From NCBI GenBank assembly GCA_964482725.1, contig CAYZYT010000007.1, positions 19,875 through 83,874 on the forward strand: DNA of 64,000 nt. The letters run 5' to 3'. Below, one piece after another: positions 4,081 to 39,777 of this stretch. The notes under the pieces were generated by a model that was given only the letters and a program-made list of their open reading frames with translations, had not been told where the DNA came from and made no database searches. Position numbers and translations under genes: made by a program. Position 1 is the stretch's first letter; each line of letters opens with the position of its first letter. Source of the DNA: an uncultured bacterium. Lineage in GTDB: Bacteria; Omnitrophota; Omnitrophia; Omnitrophales; Aquincolibacteriaceae.

Positions 4081-6579
4081 ATGGCTACTGCGAAAAAGAA
4101 GGATGAGCGAAAAGAGAATCCGGAACTTTGGCACCTGGAAACTAAGGACATGACCAAAGACGGATTGAAGGAATCTTTCAGCGCCAGTCTCCACTACGGC
4201 CTTGCCAAGGACCGGTTTACCGCCACCTCTCACGATAATTTTATGGCGCTCGGGATGTCCCTGCGGGACCGGCTGGTGGAACGATGGATCCAAACCCAGC
4301 AGCGCTATCACGTGAAGAACCTCAAACGCGTCTATTATCTTTCTCTGGAATTCCTGATCGGCCGTCTTTTGGGAAATTATATTTTGAATCTCGGACTGTG
4401 GGACCAAAGCCAAAAAGCTCTCGAGGAATTCGGGCTCGATCTTGAAAAAGTCCGTGAGGAGGAGGTCGACGCGGGGCTCGGGAACGGTGGCTTGGGACGC
4501 CTGGCCGCGTGTTTTCTGGATTCGATGGCGACGCTCGGGATCCCCGCGCATGGGTACGGGATCCGCTATGACTACGGGATCTTCAATCAAAGGATCATCA
4601 ACGGCTATCAGGTGGAATCGCCGGATGAATGGCTCAAGCACGGGAATCCCTGGGAATTTGCCCGCCCGGAATACTCTCAGAAGATCAAGTTCTACGGCGC
4701 GACGAACATGTACCATGACAAAAAAGGCCGGCTTTGCGTTGAGTGGGTGAATGCGCAGAATGTTCTCGCGATGCCCTACGACACTCCGGTCCCGGGGTAC
4801 AAGAATAATGTCGTCAATACCCTTCGCCTCTGGTCCGCAAAAAGTTCCGAAGAGTTCGATCTCCAGTATTTTAATGACGGGGATTACGAGCGCGCGGTTT
4901 ACGACAAGATGTTTACGGAAAATATTTCCAAGGTTCTTTACCCCAATGACGCGACCTCGATGGGCAGGGAACTGCGTCTGAAACAGGAATATTTCTTTAC
5001 CGCAGCGTCGATCGCGGACATCATCCGCCGTTTCAAAGAAGATAATACCCTTTTTAAGGATTTCCCCGAGAAAGCGGCGATCCAGTTGAATGACACACAT
5101 CCGGCGCTTGCGATCGTGGAGTTCATGCGCATTCTTTTGGATGAAGAACAAATGGATTGGGATCTGGCTTGGGACCTCACGGTCCGGACTTTCGCCTACA
5201 CCAATCATACCGTGATGCCCGAGGCGCTTGAGTGTTGGCCTGTCGCGGTATTCGAAAAGCTTCTGCCCCGTCACATGCAGATCGTCTATGAGATCAACGA
5301 CCGGTTTCTGAAGGAGCTTTCTGCGGAATATCCGGGCGACTCGGACCGGCTGCGGCGGATGTCCCTGATCGACGAAGGCGGCGGGAAAAAGATCCGCATG
5401 GCGTACCTCGCGATCATCGGCTCTCATTCCGTGAACGGGGTTTCCGAACTGCACAGCACGCTTCTCAAAGAGCAGCTCTTCAAGGATTTTTATGAGCTGT
5501 CGCCGGAAAAGTTCAACAACAAGACCAACGGGATCACGCACCGCCGGTGGCTGATGAAGGCCAATCGGCCGCTTTCCGCGCTTATCACAGGAACGATCGG
5601 GGAAGGCTGGGAGAAGAACCTCTACGAACTGGAAAAGTTGGTGCCGCACAAGGGCGATCATCTTCTCAGGAAAAAATGGCAGCAGGTGAAGCGCGACAAC
5701 AAAAAGCTGCTCGCGGATCTGATCTTCAGGGAAACGGGTGTCCGGGTCAATGTCGATTCCATGTTCGACGTCCAGGTCAAGCGTATTCACGAATACAAAC
5801 GCCAGACCCTTTTCATCCTCTATGCGATCTCCCAATACCTGAAGCTCCGGGAGAATCCGGGCGCCTCCATCACCCCGAGGACGTTCATTTTTTCCGGGAA
5901 AGCGGCCCCGAGCTATTTTCTCGCGAAACTCATCATCAAATTCATCAATAACGTGGCGAATGTGATCAATCACGACAAGGTGAGCAAGGAGAAGCTTACG
6001 GTCGTCTTCCTTGAAAATTACCGCGTTTCCCTGGCCGAGAAGATCTTTCCGGCGAGCGATCTTTCCGAACAGATCTCGACGGCGGGGACGGAAGCCTCCG
6101 GGACGGGTTGCATGAAATTCATGATGAACGGGGCTTTGACCGTGGGGACCTATGACGGGGCCAATATCGAGATCGCCGAAGAGGTGGGGGAAGAAAATAT
6201 TTATATGTTCGGCCTCAAGGCGCAGGAAGCGCTGAAGCTGAAATGTGAGGGCTATGACCCTCAGCGTTTCATCCGGGAGTCCGCCGGCTTGCGCCAGATC
6301 TTTCAGATGATGCGGAGTAATTTCTTCTCACCGATGGAGCCGGGCATCTTTGACCCGCTCGTTCACAATCTGAGCGTGGACGATCCGTTCATGGTTTGTG
6401 CGGATTTTGAATCCTATTGCGCCATTCAGGACAGGATCTCGGAAGATTATCAGGATCAGGATCAGTGGACCGAGAAGGCTATCCTCAATATGGCGAAATC
6501 GGGGAAGTTCTCCAGCGACCGCACGATCGCCGAATATGCCAGGGATATTTGGAATGTCCCAACGAACCAGTCTAAGTGA
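4081..6579 (+). CDS. glgP: glycogen/maltodextrin phosphorylase
   Basis: Full-length alpha-glucan phosphorylase homology; PLP-site region EASGTGCMKFMMNGALTVGTYDGANIE; start chosen at ATG 4081 with gggagataaa RBS (track ORF begins at 4015). Confidence 0.9.
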   Translation: MATAKKKDERKENPELWHLETKDMTKDGLKESFSASLHYGLAKDRFTATSHDNFMALGMSLRDRLVERWIQTQQRYHVKNLKRVYYLSLEFLIGRLLGNYILNLGLWDQSQKALEEFGLDLEKVREEEVDAGLGNGGLGRLAACFLDSMATLGIPAHGYGIRYDYGIFNQRIINGYQVESPDEWLKHGNPWEFARPEYSQKIKFYGATNMYHDKKGRLCVEWVNAQNVLAMPYDTPVPGYKNNVVNTLRLWSAKSSEEFDLQYFNDGDYERAVYDKMFTENISKVLYPNDATSMGRELRLKQEYFFTAASIADIIRRFKEDNTLFKDFPEKAAIQLNDTHPALAIVEFMRILLDEEQMDWDLAWDLTVRTFAYTNHTVMPEALECWPVAVFEKLLPRHMQIVYEINDRFLKELSAEYPGDSDRLRRMSLIDEGGGKKIRMAYLAIIGSHSVNGVSELHSTLLKEQLFKDFYELSPEKFNNKTNGITHRRWLMKANRPLSALITGTIGEGWEKNLYELEKLVPHKGDHLLRKKWQQVKRDNKKLLADLIFRETGVRVNVDSMFDVQVKRIHEYKRQTLFILYAISQYLKLRENPGASITPRTFIFSGKAAPSYFLAKLIIKFINNVANVINHDKVSKEKLTVVFLENYRVSLAEKIFPASDLSEQISTAGTEASGTGCMKFMMNGALTVGTYDGANIEIAEEVGEENIYMFGLKAQEALKLKCEGYDPQRFIRESAGLRQIFQMMRSNFFSPMEPGIFDPLVHNLSVDDPFMVCADFESYCAIQDRISEDYQDQDQWTEKAILNMAKSGKFSSDRTIAEYARDIWNVPTNQSK

Positions 6580-6589
6580 AATTCTAACA

Positions 6590-6734
6590 GGCTGCTAAAA
6601 ACAGTACTCGCGTCATTCTGAGCCCCGGAGTTTCCGACCCATTCGGGTCGTAGACCCGGTGGGAGGGCGAAGAATCCCGATGAGAGATCCTTCACGATGC
6701 TGCGCATCGCTCAGGATGACGAAGTTTTTAGCAG
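6590..6734. repeat. ~113-bp palindromic element with 11-bp terminal inverted repeats (family B, copy 1, MITE-like)
   Basis: Core cgtcattctgagc...ccgacccattcgggtcg...gaagaatcccgatgagagatccttc...gctcaggatgacg (ends mutually complementary), flanked by ctgctaaaaac / gtttttagcag; near-perfect reverse complement of 8368-8480. Confidence 0.75.
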
Positions 6735-6939
6735 TTTCCTAAACAAACTCGAGACATAAAATTTTAAAATCCGAAACGCGGGTTTAGTCTTTGAGTTTTG
6801 AACATTTGAATTTGTTTAGGGTTTAGTGTTTCGTGTTTAGGATTTGACGCAATAACGGCCCCGCCACCTGTGAAGTGGCGGAGCTTAGTACATAGCCATC
6901 TGGTTTCTAAGTACTATGTGCCATGCACCATGTACTGCT

Positions 6940-8268
6940 TTACGACTTATTCCTTCCCCCCAGTTGCCGGATCCCCGTGACGCTGAAGAAAAGTTCCAGG
7001 CTCGATATTTGTTGCGCCACAAGCCGTACTTCCCGGAATTTTTCGGAAAGAATGAAGTGCGACAGGAATCGCAGTACTCCCGAGATCAAAAAGACGGTCA
7101 GGATCGCGGATCCCCGGAACGGTAACACGCGTTCGACAAGAAATCCTCCCGTCGCGGCACCCAGAAAGATCGCAATGCCCGTGATGACGGCGAAGTAGCT
7201 CAGGCAGCGGATCCTCTTACCGGAGCTAACGGCTTCGTAGATGAAATTCAGTGCGCAGAGATTGAAACCTCCCCACACGAATCCGGAAAAGATCTCCACG
7301 CAGATCAGATAGGCGGGGAGGGGCGAGACCATCCAGAGCAGCGGGATCGCTGGGATGAGCAGGCTTGTGAGTTTGAGGATCTTCGCGTTTCCGACCGAAT
7401 CCGCATGCCTTCCCCATATCGGAAAGGAGAGAAGGCCTGCGGCGACAGACGTGAAGCGGATGGCCATAAAGAGAAGATAATTAAAGTGAAGGTCGCTGAG
7501 CATGTAGACGCTGAAGAAGGGCGCGGCAAGGTTCGTCGCGAACATAATGCTTGCGACATAGAATACGAATTTCACGAAATTACTTTGCCGGAATCTCCGG
7601 AGGAACATGAAGAACGTGAAGTGGCTTTCCGGTGTTTTAACGACCGGAAGATCCTGCATCCGCGCCATGAGTCCCGCGGAAAGGAACCGGGCCAAGGTGG
7701 CGACCGCGACGAGGATCACAAAACCGGCTGCTTGAAGATGCCCCTGATAGCTGAAAAGAAGCGCGCCGCCCCAAATTGTGCCGAGCATGCCGGCGATACC
7801 GACGAGCCTTGAGCGCCATCCGAAATAGCGGCCCCGTTCCTCGGCCGGAAGATAATCGCTCGTCAGGCTGCCCCAGACCGTGCTGATGACGCTTCCGAAG
7901 GTCCGGAAAAAGGTCACACATACGATAAGGACCCCGATCCTCCAGGAGCCGGTTAGGCACGGAAGAAAAGCGATCGGAAGCAGGCAAAAGGCTTGCCCGG
8001 CCGCGCTGCTCACGAGAGAGCGGAGCCGGCTGCCTTTCATCAGGTCCACCCACTTCGAGGTCCAAAGCTGGAGGACGGAGCTGACGAGGGTTGGGACGGC
8101 CACGAGGAACGCGATCTCGGCCGGGGTGGCGCCGAGAAAAAGAGCCAGAGGAATGGAATAATCATCGGCGAGGGACTGCATGACGCTCGCGGGGAGGCCT
8201 TCCTTCCAGGAGATCTGAAGGCTCTTCAGGTAAGGATTTTCTCTGAGTTGTGCGAAGATTTTTTCCAT
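6940..8268 (-). CDS. MFS family transporter (12 predicted TM helices)
   Basis: Hydrophobic 12-TM profile, MFS loop motif WGRHADSVGNAKILK; start placed at internal ATG 8268 preceded by gaggggg RBS because the ORF-track start (8373) lies inside the inverted repeat element. Confidence 0.7.
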   Translation of the reverse strand: MEKIFAQLRENPYLKSLQISWKEGLPASVMQSLADDYSIPLALFLGATPAEIAFLVAVPTLVSSVLQLWTSKWVDLMKGSRLRSLVSSAAGQAFCLLPIAFLPCLTGSWRIGVLIVCVTFFRTFGSVISTVWGSLTSDYLPAEERGRYFGWRSRLVGIAGMLGTIWGGALLFSYQGHLQAAGFVILVAVATLARFLSAGLMARMQDLPVVKTPESHFTFFMFLRRFRQSNFVKFVFYVASIMFATNLAAPFFSVYMLSDLHFNYLLFMAIRFTSVAAGLLSFPIWGRHADSVGNAKILKLTSLLIPAIPLLWMVSPLPAYLICVEIFSGFVWGGFNLCALNFIYEAVSSGKRIRCLSYFAVITGIAIFLGAATGGFLVERVLPFRGSAILTVFLISGVLRFLSHFILSEKFREVRLVAQQISSLELFFSVTGIRQLGGRNKS

Positions 8269-8354
8269 GACGGTGGCCCCCTCTGTTATCGGCAAGAACA
8301 AAGCCTTTAATGAGCTTGCGAGCGCATCTCTTCGCATGGGGATTCCACGCAAAC

Positions 8355-8495
8355 TGTTGAAAAACTTCGTCATCCTGAGCGATGCGCAGCATCGTGAAGG
8401 ATCTCTCGTCGGGATCCTTCACCCTCCCACCGGGTCTACGACCCGAATGGATCGGGAACTCCGGAGTTCAAAATGACGCGAAGGGTGGTTTTTAA
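8355..8495. repeat. family B palindromic element, copy 2 (inverted relative to copy 1)
   Basis: cgtcatcctgagcgatgcgcagcatcgtgaaggatctctcgtcgggatccttcaccctcccaccgggtctacgacccgaatggatcgggaactccggagttcaaaatgacgcg = reverse complement of 6609-6721 with few mismatches; flanked by gttgaaaaac / ggtttttaac. Confidence 0.75.
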
Positions 8496-8597
8496 CGGTA
8501 TGTCTGATGCAAGGGCGCTATCGTTTTTGTGGGGCGTGGTGTATACTTTCCGTAGTCATTGCTTCTTCCTCGAAGTTTGTCAGCCAGTGGGGTGAAA

Positions 8598-11500
8598 ATG
8601 AAATTGGATGGCGGGAAGCACCTGGTGGATGGGAAATATTCCATCAAAGACTTGGTAGATCTGGAAGAGTTAAGAGCTCTGTTCCAGAGTTTTACCGATG
8701 CCATGGGCTTTACCATCGGCTTTTTGAGCACTCCCGAGCTTGAGATCCTCATTGCCACAGGATGGCGAAAGATCTGCACCCAATATCACCGGAACTGTCC
8801 CCTCGCCGCAGAAAGATGCCGAATCAGTAACGCCAGGCTTGTCCGTCACTGCAAACGCCCCGGCCAGATCATTATTGAAGCTTGCGAGAATGGACTCGTG
8901 GATTGCGCGACTCCGATCATCATCAAAGGTAAAAAGGTCGCCATTCTCGCGACCGGCCAAGTACTTCTCAAGCCCCCCAATATCGAACATTTCAGAAAAC
9001 AGGCGAAACTCTATGGCTGCAACAAGGCCGCCTATCTCAGAGCCCTGAAAGACGTCCCCGTTATTTCCCCCAAAAAACTAAAGCAAGCCACGCGATTTCT
9101 TGGCCAATTGGCGCATACGATCATCCAGATGGGATATGCCAGCCTTGAGGAAAAGGAACGTAGCGAATTGTTGTCGCGCGAGATCCATCAACGCAAAAAT
9201 TTGGAAGAGGCATTACGAGTCAAGAACCGTGCCTTTGACATATCTCTGGCGGCCACGAGTATTGCCGACACGAGGGGCGTTATCACCGAGGCTAACGATG
9301 CGTTCCTTCGGGCTTGGGGCTGCCGGAGCCGTGGGGAGGTCATCGGCAAGCCCCTAGCGCATTTTTTAAATGATCCGAGAGAGGCTACAGCCATTTTCCG
9401 GGCTCTTAACAAACAGGGGCGATGGGAGGGAGACTTTATAGCGAAGAAGAGAGACAGATCAACATTTATTGCGCACACTCAGGCGACGGCCGTATTGAAT
9501 GAGAGCGGTAAATTGATCGGATATCAATCGGCGGTAGCAGACATCACCGAGCGCCAGAGGGCGGAGGAATCCCTTCAGGAAAGCGTTAAGGATTGGAGGG
9601 ACACATTCGATGCGGTCAATGATGCTGTGTGGCTTCTCAGCCTGGATGGAAGGATCCTTCGGGCCAACAAATCAACCCGTTCGGTGCTTGGGAAAAAGCC
9701 GGAAGAGATCCTTGGGCGCCGTTGCTGTGAAGTGGTCCATGGTTCCCGAATACCTCCCATCGAATGCCCCTTGCATCGTATGCGGAAAAGTCGTCAGCGT
9801 GAATCCTGGGAATTTCAGGATTCGAACCGTTGGTTCCGGGTCACAGTCGATCCTATCTGGGATTCTAAAGGAGTCCTGATCGGGGCTGTTCATATCGTTA
9901 GCGATATTACAGCCCGCAAAGAAGCGGGAGAAGCGCTTCTGGCGAGCGAAGATCAATACCGGAATATTTTTGAGAGCTCCCAGGATGCCTTGATGACGCT
10001 GGAGTCTCCTAGCTGGAAGTTTACCTCGGCCAATACGGCCATGCTGCGGATGTTCGGGGCAAAAAATGCCGCGGAGCTTTTTTCTCATGCTCCTTGGGTT
10101 CTTTCTCCCAAGCTGCAGCCGGATGGGCGCTCTTCTGCCAAGAAGGCCAAGAAAATGATCCAAATAGCGATCCGCCAAGGTTCTCACGCCTTCGAGTGGA
10201 CGCACCGACGGATTGATGGAACGGCGTTCCCCGCCGAAGTTCTCTTGACGAGAGTGGTTAAGGACAAGGACAAGGACAAGGACATAGTATCCCTCCAGGC
10301 AACGGTCAGAGATATCACGGCGCGCAAAAAGTCGGAGGAGGCTTTGCGGGAGAGTGAAGAAAAATTTCGTCTTATGTTCAACACATCGGCTGCCGGGATG
10401 GCGATGTGCAACATGGACGGTTCTCTTGTCGAAGTGAACCAGGCTTATTTAGATATTATTGGCTATACGCGCAAAGAAGCCCTGAGACTTAGCTATTGGG
10501 ATCTGACGCCGAAGAAGTATGCCAAGGATGAGGCCCGACAACTTCGCTCCATGGAATTGACTGGAAAATACGGTCCTTATACGAAGGAGTATATTCGAAA
10601 AACAGGCGAGCGGGTTGACGTGATGCTCACCGGGGCCGTTGTGACGGGGGCGGATGGGGTGAAGCGTATCTGGTCGCTTGTGGAGAATATCACCGAGCGC
10701 AAGCGGTCGGAGGAGCTGTTGAAACAGCGTGAGGCCTACTTGACAGCCATTGTGGATAACCAGTCCGGGATGGTCTGGCTGAAGGACAAGGAAAGCCGGT
10801 TTCTGGCCGTGAACCAGGTATTCGCCAAAATGGCCGGCAAGAAAAAGCCCGAGGATGTGGTGGGGAAGACCGATCTTGATTTCTGGCCTCCCGAAATGGC
10901 TAAGGGATATCGGGCCGATGACCGGAAAGTGATGCGAAGCCGAAAATCTGTCTCGGTGGAGGAACTCATCTCCGAGAAAGGCGTCGCTCGGTGGCATGAG
11001 ACTTTCAAGACCCCTGTTTTTGACTCGGACGGAAAAGTGATCGGGACGACCGGCTATGCCCGGGATATCACGGAGCGCAGGCGTGCAGAAGAGGCTCTTC
11101 AGGAGAGCGAAAAACGCTTTCGCGTTGTGGTAAATAATTCGCTCGATCTTGTTTACCGGCGGAACATCCAGACCGGCCGGTATGATTTTTTTAGCCCGGC
11201 GGTCAAGAAGACGCTCGGTTTTTCATCAGAAGAATTGATCGGCAAAAAACTGAGCTTTGCCACAAGTCGGATTCATCCCGAGGATCTCAAGGTGATAATG
11301 CCTGTGCTGAAAAGAGCCCAGGCCGGCCTTCAGAGGAGCGGTATCGTCGATTATCGATGCAGACACAAAGATGGAACTTATCGATGGCTTTCTGATCGTT
11401 TTACGATCGTTGATGACGCGAACGGACGGCCCTTTTATTGGGTAGGGGTTTCTCGAGATGTTACCGCTGCCAAGGTGTCGGCCGAGGCGCTGAGGAAAAG

Positions 11501-13680: not shown

Positions 13681-13838
13681 TCTGTGGATCCAGGGGGCCT
13701 GTCGCCCGATTTTCAAGAAGGGGGCTCGTAAGGCGCTGCAACTTCGATAGGCGCTGTCAAGTTGCGGGATAGTTCGCGGGCTAGGACGATGCGGTTTTGA
13801 AGTTACGGTGTCTCATTCTCGGAGGAAGATGTACCGGT

Positions 13839-14555
13839 ATGAAGTCCTTGAATAGCAAGCTACTCATTAATGCGCTGGCCAGGATCAGTGACGCCGTCAC
13901 GTCGGACCTTTATGTGGACGAGATCCTGAAGCTGATCGTCACTGTGACCGCGGAGGTCATGAGCTCCAAAATCTGCTCCCTGATGCTTCTGGATAAAAAA
14001 ACTCAGGAGCTTGCGGTCAAGGCCACCCAGTCTGTCAGTGAGTTCTACAACACCAAGCCCAATGCCAGGATCGGGGAGGGCATCGCCGGCCGGGTGGCTC
14101 AATCCGGAAAATCCATCACCGTGTTGGATGTGAGAAAAGATGCGCGCTATCTGAATCAGGCGATCGCGAAAAAAGAGCACCTTTGTTCGCTTCTGAGCGT
14201 GCCGCTTATTTTTAAAGGGAATGTGATCGGGGTTCTGAATTGCTACACCGTGAAGCCGCACCGGTTTGGCCAGGGGGAAATACGCATTATCCGGTCGATC
14301 GCGAGCCTGGCTGCGATCGTCATCGAAAATTTCCGGCTGGTGGTCGAGTCTCAGGCGATCCAGGAAGAACTGGAATCCCGAAAGGCGATCGAGCGCGCCA
14401 AGGGCATTCTGATGAAGCGGGAGGGCTTGAGCGAGCAGGGGGCTTACAAGCTCATCCGGAAGTACAGCATGGATAAGCGCAAGAGCATGAAGGAAGTGGC
14501 GGAGGCGATCCTCTTAAGCGAGGAAATGCAAAAGATCGCGTCCAGCAAGGAATAA
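13839..14555 (+). CDS. GAF domain + ANTAR domain RNA-binding antitermination regulator
   Basis: GAF-like N-terminus; C-terminal ANTAR signature ELESRKAIERAKGILMKREGLSEQGAYKLIRKYSMDKRKSMKEVAEAIL; ATG 13839 after ggaggaag RBS. Confidence 0.8.
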   Translation: MKSLNSKLLINALARISDAVTSDLYVDEILKLIVTVTAEVMSSKICSLMLLDKKTQELAVKATQSVSEFYNTKPNARIGEGIAGRVAQSGKSITVLDVRKDARYLNQAIAKKEHLCSLLSVPLIFKGNVIGVLNCYTVKPHRFGQGEIRIIRSIASLAAIVIENFRLVVESQAIQEELESRKAIERAKGILMKREGLSEQGAYKLIRKYSMDKRKSMKEVAEAILLSEEMQKIASSKE

Positions 14556-14683
14556 GAGCCTCAAAGAAGCTGGCCTTCTGATCCCGCCGAGGCGGGAGAA
14601 GAATCTAAAGTAAGATCCTTCCCCCGCCCTTTAAAGCAGGGCGTGCTCAGGATGACGGGGCTTTTAGGTTTCTAAGATCGGGA

Positions 14684-21593: not shown

Positions 21594-21653
21594 GCCGTAT
21601 TGCCATTGGCCGTAAAAAAAAGTAAACTGAGCACCTTTCGGAGCCATCATTAT

Positions 21654-22622
21654 ATGAAAGATCTTCCAAACGACGTGACAACGCAAGAGCTTCTCCGCCA
21701 GATCGCTCTTCTCAAGAAAGAGCGTGAGGCCGTGATCCTGGCGCACAATTATCAGCCGCCGGAGATCCAGGACCTTGCTGATTTTACCGGCGATTCGCTT
21801 GAGCTGAGCCGTATTGCGGCCAAAACTCCCGCCAAAGTGATCGTCTTCTGCGGCGTTCAGTTCATGGGGGAGACTGCCGCGATCCTTTCTCCCGATAAAA
21901 CCGTACTTCTGCCAGTCCTGGAAGCCGGCTGCACGCTGGCGGATTATGCAACGGCGGAGCGGCTCCGCGAGATGAAAGCGAAATATCCGGAGGCCGTGGT
22001 GGTGACCTACGTGAATAGCTCCGCCGAAGTGAAAGCGGAAACGGATATTTGCTGCACCTCCGCCAACGCGGTCCAGATCGTCGCTTCGATCGATTCTAAC
22101 CGGCCGATCCTTTTTGTGCCGGATTATAATTTAGGGCATTACGCGGCCAAGATGACAGGGCGCAGTGTGATCTTGTGGGATGGCTGCTGTCCGACGCACG
22201 CGCTTCTTTCAACCTTTGCCATCGCGAAGGCGAAGAAAAAATGGCCGGAAGCCCAAGTGATCATGCACCCGGAATGCAAGCCTGAGACTCTGGAACTGGC
22301 GGATTTTGTGGGAAGCACCTCGGGGATGCTCAGCTATGTCAAAACACAACCTGCGGGAACTTCTTTTATTGTCGGGACCGAGGTCGGGTTGCTTCACCGG
22401 CTTCAAAAGGAGAATCCGGACAAGGTGTTCCATGCGGCTTCGGACTATCTGATCTGCCCGATGATGAAGATGACGACCCTCAAAGATGTGAAGAACTCGC
22501 TTGAAAAGATGCAGTATGTCGTGAAAGTTGAAGCGTCTGTTCGTTTGCGTGCGAAAGCCGCGGTCGACGCCATGCTCGAATATACCGGCGCGGCTGCGAA
22601 AGTTGTGAAAAAAGAATCCTGA
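21654..22622 (+). CDS. nadA: quinolinate synthase
   Basis: NadA-typical N-terminus (AVILAHNYQ), conserved Cys residues, ~322 aa. Confidence 0.9.
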   Translation: MKDLPNDVTTQELLRQIALLKKEREAVILAHNYQPPEIQDLADFTGDSLELSRIAAKTPAKVIVFCGVQFMGETAAILSPDKTVLLPVLEAGCTLADYATAERLREMKAKYPEAVVVTYVNSSAEVKAETDICCTSANAVQIVASIDSNRPILFVPDYNLGHYAAKMTGRSVILWDGCCPTHALLSTFAIAKAKKKWPEAQVIMHPECKPETLELADFVGSTSGMLSYVKTQPAGTSFIVGTEVGLLHRLQKENPDKVFHAASDYLICPMMKMTTLKDVKNSLEKMQYVVKVEASVRLRAKAAVDAMLEYTGAAAKVVKKES

Positions 22623-22627
22623 AAAGC

Positions 22628-22690
22628 GCGTCATTCTGAGCGAAGCGAAGAATCTCGAAAGGAGATCCTTCACTCCGTTCAGGATGACGG
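22628..22690. repeat. short nested-hairpin element related to family B ends
   Basis: gcgtcattctgagcgaagcgaagaatctcgaaaggagatccttcactccgttcaggatgacgg: outer stem gtcattctgagcg/cgttcaggatgac, inner stem gaagaatctc/gagatccttc; sits between nadA stop and ilvD start. Confidence 0.5.
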
Positions 22691-39699: not shown

Positions 39700-39777
39700 A
39701 TAAAATAGGATGGCGGAAGGCGGATGGCGAAAAAACGGTTTTACTCCCTCCTCCATCCGTCATCCTGAAGAGAGCCT

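Follow-up and report, generated by a model that had tools for sequence, protein, structure and literature searches.

We analysed a 64,000-nucleotide (nt) stretch of DNA from an uncultured bacterium of the phylum Omnitrophota (contig CAYZYT010000007.1, positions 19,875 to 83,874; hereafter, the window), in which a gene for a major facilitator superfamily (MFS) transporter is bracketed by two palindromic elements, the left (L) and the right (R). These elements are dimers of repetitive extragenic palindromic (REP) units bearing CGTC tags that point outward, and they sit in the spacers around an ancestral MFS gene; they are probably non-coding, non-autonomous repeats of the NTS/SRM class and would be recognised and cut by an Ssn nuclease encoded elsewhere. 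The layout is an ordinary one and not that of a mobile gene cassette. L and R fall within a known class of hairpin repeats and are ordinary examples of it, although some details at the level of the family deserve recording.

The original prediction, made from the sequence of the window, had described a near-perfect inverted pair at 6609-6721 and 8368-8480, and this pair was borne out. An inverted-repeat search of the window returned arms of 133 nt at 6597-6729 and 8360-8492 with 90% complementarity, and L aligned to R by blastn with 92-93% identity (E=1e-48). The 113-nt cores had 105 of 113 bases in common, and the eight differences were all transitions, all confined to one element half or the spacer. 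Element ends reading cgtcat(t/c)ctgagc and gctcaggatgacg, as had been proposed, were found in the sequence, and the flanking terminal inverted repeats were recovered as outer AAAAAC/GTTTTT, within the following features:

6592-6602, unstranded: left outer inverted repeat of L, CTGCTAAAAAC, pairing with 6724-6734; AAAAAC alone is common to R
6724-6734, unstranded: right outer inverted repeat of L, GTTTTTAGCAG
8356-8365, unstranded: outer inverted repeat of R, GTTGAAAAAC, pairing with 8488-8496
8488-8496, unstranded: outer inverted repeat of R, GTTTTTAAC

The outer repeats were complementary inside each copy but differed between copies (CTGCT...AGCAG in L, GTT...(C)AAC in R). Likewise, the bracketing of the window's only reverse-strand gene by inverted, near-identical copies 1.6 kb apart was confirmed. 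Moreover, CTCAGGATGACG occurred seven times in the window with at most one mismatch, compared to 0.28 expected, and a structural scan for units returned four, compared to 0.14 in shuffled sequences. L starts 30 nt past the stop codon of glgP (glycogen phosphorylase) and is followed by T5, and R is located in a divergent promoter region, with no gene upstream of R ending there. An independent Logan contig (L001, SRR12261223, 1690 bp) encodes an identical 442-aa transporter and has both of its ends within the elements, indicating that the sequence is real and that the repeats break assemblies.

Each element consists of two hairpin units and a 5-nt spacer, with the tags outward and the tails facing each other. 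A unit comprises an unpaired (C/T)GTC tag, a 5-bp stem beginning with A, a tandem G·A, a closing pair, an apical loop or hairpin, and a tail beginning with C. The tandem G·A is described as sheared pairs and the apex as a GNA triloop or an expanded apical hairpin, and the consensus of this tandem-G·A unit is CGTC-ATCCT-GA-GCGNAGC-GA-AGGAT-CTC. The parts of L and R are as follows:

6611-6678, forward strand: element L unit A, CGTC ATTCT GAG (45 nt) CGA AGAAT CCC
6611-6614, forward strand: L unit A tag, CGTC
6615-6619 and 6671-6675, forward strand: L unit A stem, ATTCT and AGAAT
6620-6621 and 6669-6670, forward strand: L unit A tandem GA
G6622-C6668, forward strand: L unit A closing pair, G-C
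6623-6667, forward strand: L unit A expanded 45-nt loop
6627-6657, forward strand: second repeat nested within the L unit A loop, with a degenerate GGAG tag, a 10-bp stem (TTTCCGACCC/GGGTCGTAGA) and an ATTC loop
6676-6678, forward strand: L unit A tail, CCC
6679-6683, unstranded: L inter-unit spacer, GATGA, 5 nt
6684-6721, reverse strand: element L unit B, CGTC ATCCT GAG (CGATGCGCAGCATCG, a loop with the hairpin GATGC-GCA-GCATC) TGA AGGAT CTC
8368-8405, forward strand: element R unit B, CGTC ATCCT GAG ... TGA AGGAT CTC, holding a spurious start codon (8371-8373, reverse strand)
8411-8478, reverse strand: element R unit A, CGTC ATTTT GAA (45-nt loop with nested hairpin) TGA AGGAT CCC

R is the same dimer as L placed on the opposite strand, and unit B was 100% identical between the two. 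The stem of R unit A contains two G·T pairs, and the closing pair of unit A, G-C in L and A-T in R, has undergone a compensatory change. The long palindrome is asymmetric, with ATTCT on one side and ATCCT on the other, because each unit has its own perfect stem and the element is a heterodimer. Folded as single-stranded DNA (ssDNA), isolated units adopted the predicted structure, (((((..(((((((...)))))))..))))), and whole dimers folded on either strand with z-scores of -3 to -7; RNA folds were equally strong (z = -6.5 for L).

Comparison with related loci established the relative age of the gene and the elements. The order of an alpha-amylase-like gene, glgP, the MFS gene on the opposite strand, and a PocR/PAS histidine kinase gene was kept in the relatives L002 (GCA_041674705.1), L003, L004 and L005/L006, whose MFS proteins are 83-86% identical to that of the window. 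In these relatives, the glgP-MFS gap is only 69-89 bp, and alignments of both spacers confirmed that L and R are absent. Since gene order and orientation are kept without the elements, the MFS gene is ancestral at this site and the elements are later arrivals. MFS homologues are also widespread in Candidatus Omnitrophota, at 80-86% and ~60% identity. The left insertion in the window measures ~290 bp and holds, besides the element, a unique AT-rich stretch followed by a small GC hairpin. The same comparison corrected the gene model:

6940-8268, reverse strand: MFS transporter gene with corrected start, 442 aa, PF07690

The annotated open reading frame (ORF), 6940-8373, encodes an MFS_1 protein; its start at 8373 is an ATG within GGATGACG of the repeat and adds 35 aa (MTKFFNS..., 8269-8373). 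The start codon common to all relatives corresponds to window position 8268 and is preceded by GAGGGGG. Because the upstream ATG lies inside the repeat and the start conserved in all relatives is at 8268, the extension is spurious, and the annotated N-terminus at 8373 is an artefact caused by the repeat. The earlier remark that the transporter's N-terminus runs into the right-hand element is accordingly true of the annotated start, which does lie inside the repeat, and not of the real N-terminus.

The window contains four dimers, all intergenic, three of which sit 7-32 nt past a stop codon. The two dimers other than L and R, together with an isolated fragment, are:

22629-22689, forward strand: canonical short dimer, with unit A at 22629-22656 (forward) and unit B at 22662-22689 (reverse)
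~14574-14657, forward strand: third dimer type, with a degenerate unit A tag and both loops expanded into small hairpins
39758-39769, forward strand: isolated CGTCATCCTGAA, a tag and half stem without the partner half

Each of the four units in L and R is tagged CGTC, as are the two units of the dimer at 22629-22689. The latter dimer, which follows the stop of ORF 21600-22622 by 7 nt and precedes ORF 22718 by 29 nt, has a CGAAG or GNA loop in place of the 45-nt and 15-nt inserts carried by the loops of L and R. It had been listed, as 22628-22690, among truncated versions of the element, and it proved to be a complete canonical short dimer instead. The sequence picked out at 14641-14656 is indeed related; it forms part of the dimer at ~14574-14657, which has the degenerate first tag and starts ~20 nt past the stop of ORF 13797-14555. 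At 39757-39770, only the tag and half a stem are present, and this fragment may be a relic or a chance match.

Relatives of L and R were found not only elsewhere in the window but also in many genomes, as expected of a dispersed family of small palindromic repeats. Searches with the core pattern AGATCCTTC N3-33 TCAGGATGACG matched 30 IMG/VR stretches and at least 119 stretches of GTDB genomes; the estimated chance expectation is ~34 matches over the whole collection, and some of the core matches in coding regions are probably due to chance. More than 15 phyla were represented among the matches listed, which included four Omnitrophota contigs; the groups among them were Acidobacteriota, Omnitrophota, Bdellovibrionota, Bacteroidota, Chloroflexota, Patescibacteria, Planctomycetota, Verrucomicrobiota, Gemmatimonadota, Pseudomonadota, Bacillota, Actinomycetota and others. 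The same ATTCT/ATCCT heterodimers were present in the Omnitrophota contigs L042, L054, L055 and L072. No unit was present in ~43 kb of the close relatives L002 and L005, and the expansion is therefore lineage-specific. A plasmid search with the canonical dimer returned only a few short matches, in cyanobacteria and Granulicella, and a literature search by literal sequence matched only primers.

Quantification over 331 units defined the family further. The tag was CGTC in 250 units, TGTC in 59 and another sequence in 22; GTC was required by the unit finder, so its constancy is not independent evidence, and the preceding base was C or T in 309 of the 331. The first tail base was C in 310 units, with tails reading CTC, CCC or CTN, and loop lengths peaked at 5-6, 12-14 and 22-23 nt. 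Units occurred singly, as dimers in either arrangement, and in arrays. Partner units, which the search pattern did not fix, had a perfect 5-bp stem of their own in 56 of 69 cases, comprising 11 complementary stem versions, and the closing pair covaried (GAG..CGA, GAA..TGA, GAC..GGA). Furthermore, in 17.8% of 73 tags-outward dimers taken from L037-L155 and the window, complementarity specific to the locus continued past the tags for 6 nt or more, compared to 5.0% of re-paired controls.

A candidate enzyme for these units is provided by the Ssn family of GIY-YIG nucleases, described by Chenal et al. 2025 (Nat Commun 16:2388, PMC11893778), who had already published the association between GIY-YIG genes and repeats; a GIY-YIG/CGTC-REP link was accordingly dropped as a new finding. 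In that report, SsnA of N. meningitidis bound the NTS repeat (CGTCATTCCCGCGMAVGCGGGAATCYRG) solely as ssDNA and not as double-stranded DNA or RNA, SsnA being the one Ssn enzyme tested on RNA, and it cut a few nt upstream of the NTS. Cutting required GTC, the three bases before the palindrome, and binding required the C after it. The ssnA gene is flanked by its own repeats (NTS-ssnA-NTS), and SsnA lowered transformation by DNA of the NTS-gene-NTS layout (PMC11893778).

The present analysis arrived at this association independently: the genes bracketed by tandem-G·A units at six GTDB loci in four phyla encode small GIY-YIG proteins (PF01541). The L123 protein (116 aa, PF01541) is 49% identical to a 94-aa Neisseria SsnA orthologue, the L160 protein has 114 aa, and genes for Ssn homologues of the cd10448-like type lie beside or between tandem-G·A units at L123, L039, L066, L090, L063, L059, L160, L179 and L180. 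When 19 loci were picked by protein similarity alone, CGTC hairpins were present on both sides of the gene within 250 nt in 17 of them, at a density of 5.94/kb near the gene compared to 0.51/kb far from it and 0.23/kb in shuffles. Each of the 19 loci has its own stem version; several are near-duplicates, so that they amount to ~10 independent cases. Arrays of the tandem-G·A type flank the ssn genes of two large genomes. CGTC hairpins also flank ssn in N. gonorrhoeae (within a dRS3 cluster), S. meliloti, N. aromaticivorans and Azospirillum lipoferum 4B. Searches of NCBIfam and PDB sequences with an Ssn homologue returned no match.

Several of these loci displayed further features. In an 8.2-Mb genome (OW818698.1, L179:900-2650), the tandem-G·A arrays on both sides of the ssn gene have a period of ~133 nt, and at L066 an ssn pseudogene lies amid several units. 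In Azospirillum lipoferum 4B, ssn (GIY-YIG) and CGTC-REP dimers on both of its sides are located between sufB and sufC, which looks like an insertion into the suf operon. On S. meliloti pSymB (L184:1240-1330), a second, decayed copy of ssn survives as its 3' end, followed by the same CGTC unit, upstream of the intact ssn. Most Ssn homologues (protein hits P0121-P0360) were on contigs shorter than 2 kb, in keeping with repeats on either side that interrupt the assembly of short reads, as happened at L001.

The units share with NTS/SRM repeats (PMC11893778) the (C/T)GTC tag, a stem starting with A-T, the hairpin, and a C right after the palindrome, and hence carry the bases that SsnA needs, GTC before and, in 310 of 331, C after. 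Both are orientation-dependent, NTS/SRM copies numbering in the hundreds between genes and frequently flanking a gene on either side, and tandem-G·A units likewise flank ssn homologues; this was established for the family, the window itself having no ssn gene. In contrast, the NTS/SRM stem is contiguous over 8-9 bp, whereas here 5 bp are followed by the tandem G·A and a mini-hairpin of 2 bp with GNA or an expanded apical hairpin.

A second point of comparison is the CGTC-REPs of Di Nocera et al. 2013 (PMC3733652). As described there, the CGTC/TGTC tag of a CGTC-REP is unpaired, the stem has 8-9 bp and begins with AT, the loop measures 4-5 nt and the tail 3 nt; they form dimers including heterodimers, lie just downstream of ORFs, and are sometimes embedded in longer palindromes. 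They have no dedicated transposase and are not associated with RAYT genes, and the families CGTC-1 to CGTC-4 include Neisseria dRS3 and Rickettsia RPE-4/6. The present units match these accounts in the CGTC/TGTC tag, the AT at the start of the stem, the 3-nt tail, the inverted dimers and heterodimers, the location at ORF 3' ends, and the embedding in a longer palindrome, as in H. neapolitanus. Their stems begin and end as AT...AT and span nine positions, of which positions 6-7 are the tandem G·A, unlike the Watson-Crick stem of 8-9 bp, the 4-5 nt loop and the CCA tail of the described CGTC-REPs; the loops here reach 45 nt, and the tail is CTC. The species list of that paper names no Omnitrophota, Acidobacteriota or Patescibacteria. 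The tandem-G·A type is set apart from CGTC-1 to CGTC-4 by these text descriptions and may equal one of the four.

We propose the following course of events. L and R probably derive from one progenitor, as they have in common the expanded loops, the nested GTAG-type hairpin and short flanks, and they were inserted or locally copied into both MFS spacers after the split from the sequenced relatives. In the ssDNA state, each unit is predicted to fold on the strand carrying its 5' CGTC, where a GIY-YIG nuclease of the Ssn family, its gene lying elsewhere in the genome, would bind the unit and cut a few nt upstream of the tag. With the tags pointing outward, both strands would be cut immediately beyond the dimer, which would thereby be bracketed and become the natural unit to be excised, copied or recombined. 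On the left, L/R homology starts 3 nt ahead of the unit A tag, which fits cutting just outside the tag, and excision of the dimer with 3 nt per side leaves a small hairpin with an AAAAA stem half, a loop and TTTTT. L and R resemble each other much more closely than the other two dimers of the window do, so that one probably arose from the other by local copying; that both stand next to one gene is thus not pure chance, and the gene is not thereby mobile. The extended complementarity of tags-outward dimers (17.8% compared to 5.0%) suggests that dimers insert into pre-existing hairpins, a mode of insertion that has been described for some REP families (PMC3733652). Effects on transcription, such as that of L with T5 after glgP, are possible by-products and would not be the reason for the conservation of the family.

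Several results weigh against this interpretation. No ssn gene was found in the 64-kb window, and protein searches returned no Ssn homologue labelled Omnitrophota; because the window lacks the gene, mobilisation by Ssn is a step that we infer. Transposition by Ssn enzymes has never been demonstrated, the published work showing only that they bind, cut and influence transformation (PMC11893778). On the right, L/R homology extends 8 nt beyond the tag rather than 3, which fits outside-tag cutting less well. A 37-mer specific to L/R had no match in GTDB representatives and JGI metagenomes, and the excess of G·T over A·C mispairs in the strand test was weak (13 compared to 5). Finally, the published SRM pattern, HGTCWYN(0-2)YYVSBRHN(0-5)WNVSBRGN(0-2)RNCYNB, matched none of the 331 tandem-G·A units and no unit of the window. 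It also misses the S. meliloti unit type and matches the NTS and Azospirillum types, and its failure on all 331 units is taken to mean that the tandem-G·A stem is an unrecorded variant of the known class.

A bolder combination of these elements is conceivable, which we put forward as speculative and more likely wrong than right. In it, the tandem-G·A unit would be a distinct subclass of Ssn repeats, near-invariant across more than 15 phyla and invisible to the SRM pattern, and the tags-outward dimer would be the true mobile unit, with the cognate Ssn cutting ~3 nt outside each tag. The dimer would be deposited preferentially in the loops of small pre-existing hairpins, explaining the copy-specific outer inverted repeats, and a pair of dimers around a gene would mark it for altered recombination or ssDNA uptake, as with NTS-gene-NTS in Neisseria.

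The alternative that survives best, although we consider it unlikely, is that the elements are transcribed into cis-acting RNA hairpins, such as terminators, insulators or stabilisers of 3' ends, and owe their selection to an effect on glgP, the MFS gene or the kinase gene. The position of L shortly after the glgP stop and before T5 agrees with this, as do the strong RNA folds and the dimers near 14.6 kb and 22.6 kb, which lie 7-20 nt past stops in the same orientation as the upstream gene. REPs in general lie downstream of ORFs and can stabilise mRNA (PMC3733652), and the gene context of the family had a slight convergent excess (convergent:divergent 32:21, compared to a background of 129:136, with a crude ORF caller). 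Nevertheless, R is downstream of no gene, the flanks of family members are not generally T-rich, and a promoter/terminator scan of 6400-8750 found nothing at the elements. Rfam 15 yielded no match over the window at gathering thresholds and only chance-level hits in 6400-8700 at E <=10. The unpaired tag and tail are conserved in sequence, beyond what pairing would demand, SsnA acts on ssDNA and not on RNA (PMC11893778), and the relatives do without the elements. The earlier suggestion of paired structured RNA elements insulating the gene was therefore set aside, there being no Rfam match and the unpaired tag and tail fitting ssDNA recognition by Ssn. Hammerhead-like cores, CRISPR repeats and integron attC sites were rejected by eye, as their conserved motifs did not fit and no cassette structure was seen.

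Very improbable is a second alternative, in which the elements are REPINs mobilised by RAYT, an HUH Y1 transposase, in the manner of the GTAG REPs of enterobacteria and pseudomonads. The hairpin-doublet architecture is indeed similar: REPINs and E. coli BIMEs also occur as single units, inverted doublets or arrays, the doublet is the likely replicative unit, and the enzyme gene, present in single copy, is flanked by its own repeats. Unit A moreover contains the nested GTAG-type hairpin. However, the main units are tagged CGTC rather than GTAG, and CGTC-REPs are not associated with RAYT genes, as noted above. The gene actually flanked by units encodes a GIY-YIG nuclease in place of the HUH enzyme, and tblastn with IS200 TnpA and RAYT queries, a weak test, found no match in ~1.1 Mb of loci.

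The nested hairpin has relatives of its own. Its core, TTTCCGACCC-ATTC-GGGTCGTAGA, recurs with unrelated flanks in four JGI contigs. These contigs (L156:2440-2560, L157:415-535, L158:2470-2590 and L159:1130-1260), from two JGI metagenomes, contain a dispersed ~68-nt repeat of the layout TCCCTCCGGGCCTAnGGCCC-GTAG-TCTCCGACCC-ATTC-GGGTCGTAGA-CCCGGTGGGGGCCGGAGGCT, the core of which matches the nested hairpin of unit A in L and R. By this resemblance, the nested hairpin looks like a GTAG-tagged REP seated in the loop of a CGTC unit.

A recombination switch, in which the inverted repeats let the MFS segment flip, has even less in its favour: 133-nt inverted repeats with 93% identity do surround a single gene, but the orientation is the same as in the repeat-free relatives and no recombinase is nearby. 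The sole independent assembly, L001, has the same MFS orientation but breaks inside the repeats and is thus uninformative on flipping.

Least credible of all, and refuted by synteny, is the composite transposon or MITE (miniature inverted-repeat transposable element)-flanked cassette of the original prediction, in which the inverted pair would serve as the ends of a mobile unit carrying the MFS gene: the pairing of near-identical inverted copies around the sole reverse-strand gene speaks for it, but the MFS gene occupies the same site in the same orientation in relatives without the repeats, its homologues are spread vertically in Omnitrophota, no transposase lies in or near the segment, and no target-site duplication or other direct repeat was present at L (flanks AACAGG, TTTCCT) or R (ATACC, AGTTT). 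The synteny and target-site comparisons that had been proposed as checks thus both went against the cassette, the former by revealing the MFS gene as ancestral at this site and not as cargo. L and R do resemble MITEs and composite transposons in being small, non-coding, terminally symmetric in inverted fashion and polymorphic in presence or absence; unlike them, they lack target-site duplications and kinship to known insertion-sequence ends and enclose an ancestral gene. The two other dimers of the window flank nothing special, and bracketing of genes by dimers is routine in repeat-rich genomes, as in Omnitrophica L054, where successive spacers are occupied.

For the annotation of the window, the MFS start should be moved to 8268 and L and R labelled as REP/SRM-type repeats, the cassette being illusory. 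More generally, a near-invariant hairpin repeat that is common in uncultured phyla (Omnitrophota, Acidobacteriota, Patescibacteria and others) can be assigned to the CGTC-REP/Ssn-related class, and since the SRM pattern misses the tandem-G·A stem, counts of Ssn-associated repeats are underestimated. Tandem-G·A repeats break short-read assemblies and create spurious N-terminal extensions. The cognate Ssn enzymes of the tandem-G·A unit, if characterised, would represent a new specificity among site-specific single-strand nucleases.

Other features of the locus were also observed. The rest of the left insertion, 6730-6887, comprises the unique AT-rich stretch of ~130 bp with a tandem GTTTAGG x4.6 (6813-6845), followed by the GC hairpin at 6862-6887; both were absent from the relatives and from every other locus compared. 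Directly 3' of the MFS stop, a GTAC-rich imperfect palindrome at 6888-6935 is kept in L002, L003 and L005, unlike the rest of the spacer, and might represent a terminator shared in both directions or a site to which a protein binds. Farther along the window, a single ORF on the forward strand (40398-63173) encodes 7591 aa, and the relatives have giant genes of ~6000 aa beside the same neighbourhood.

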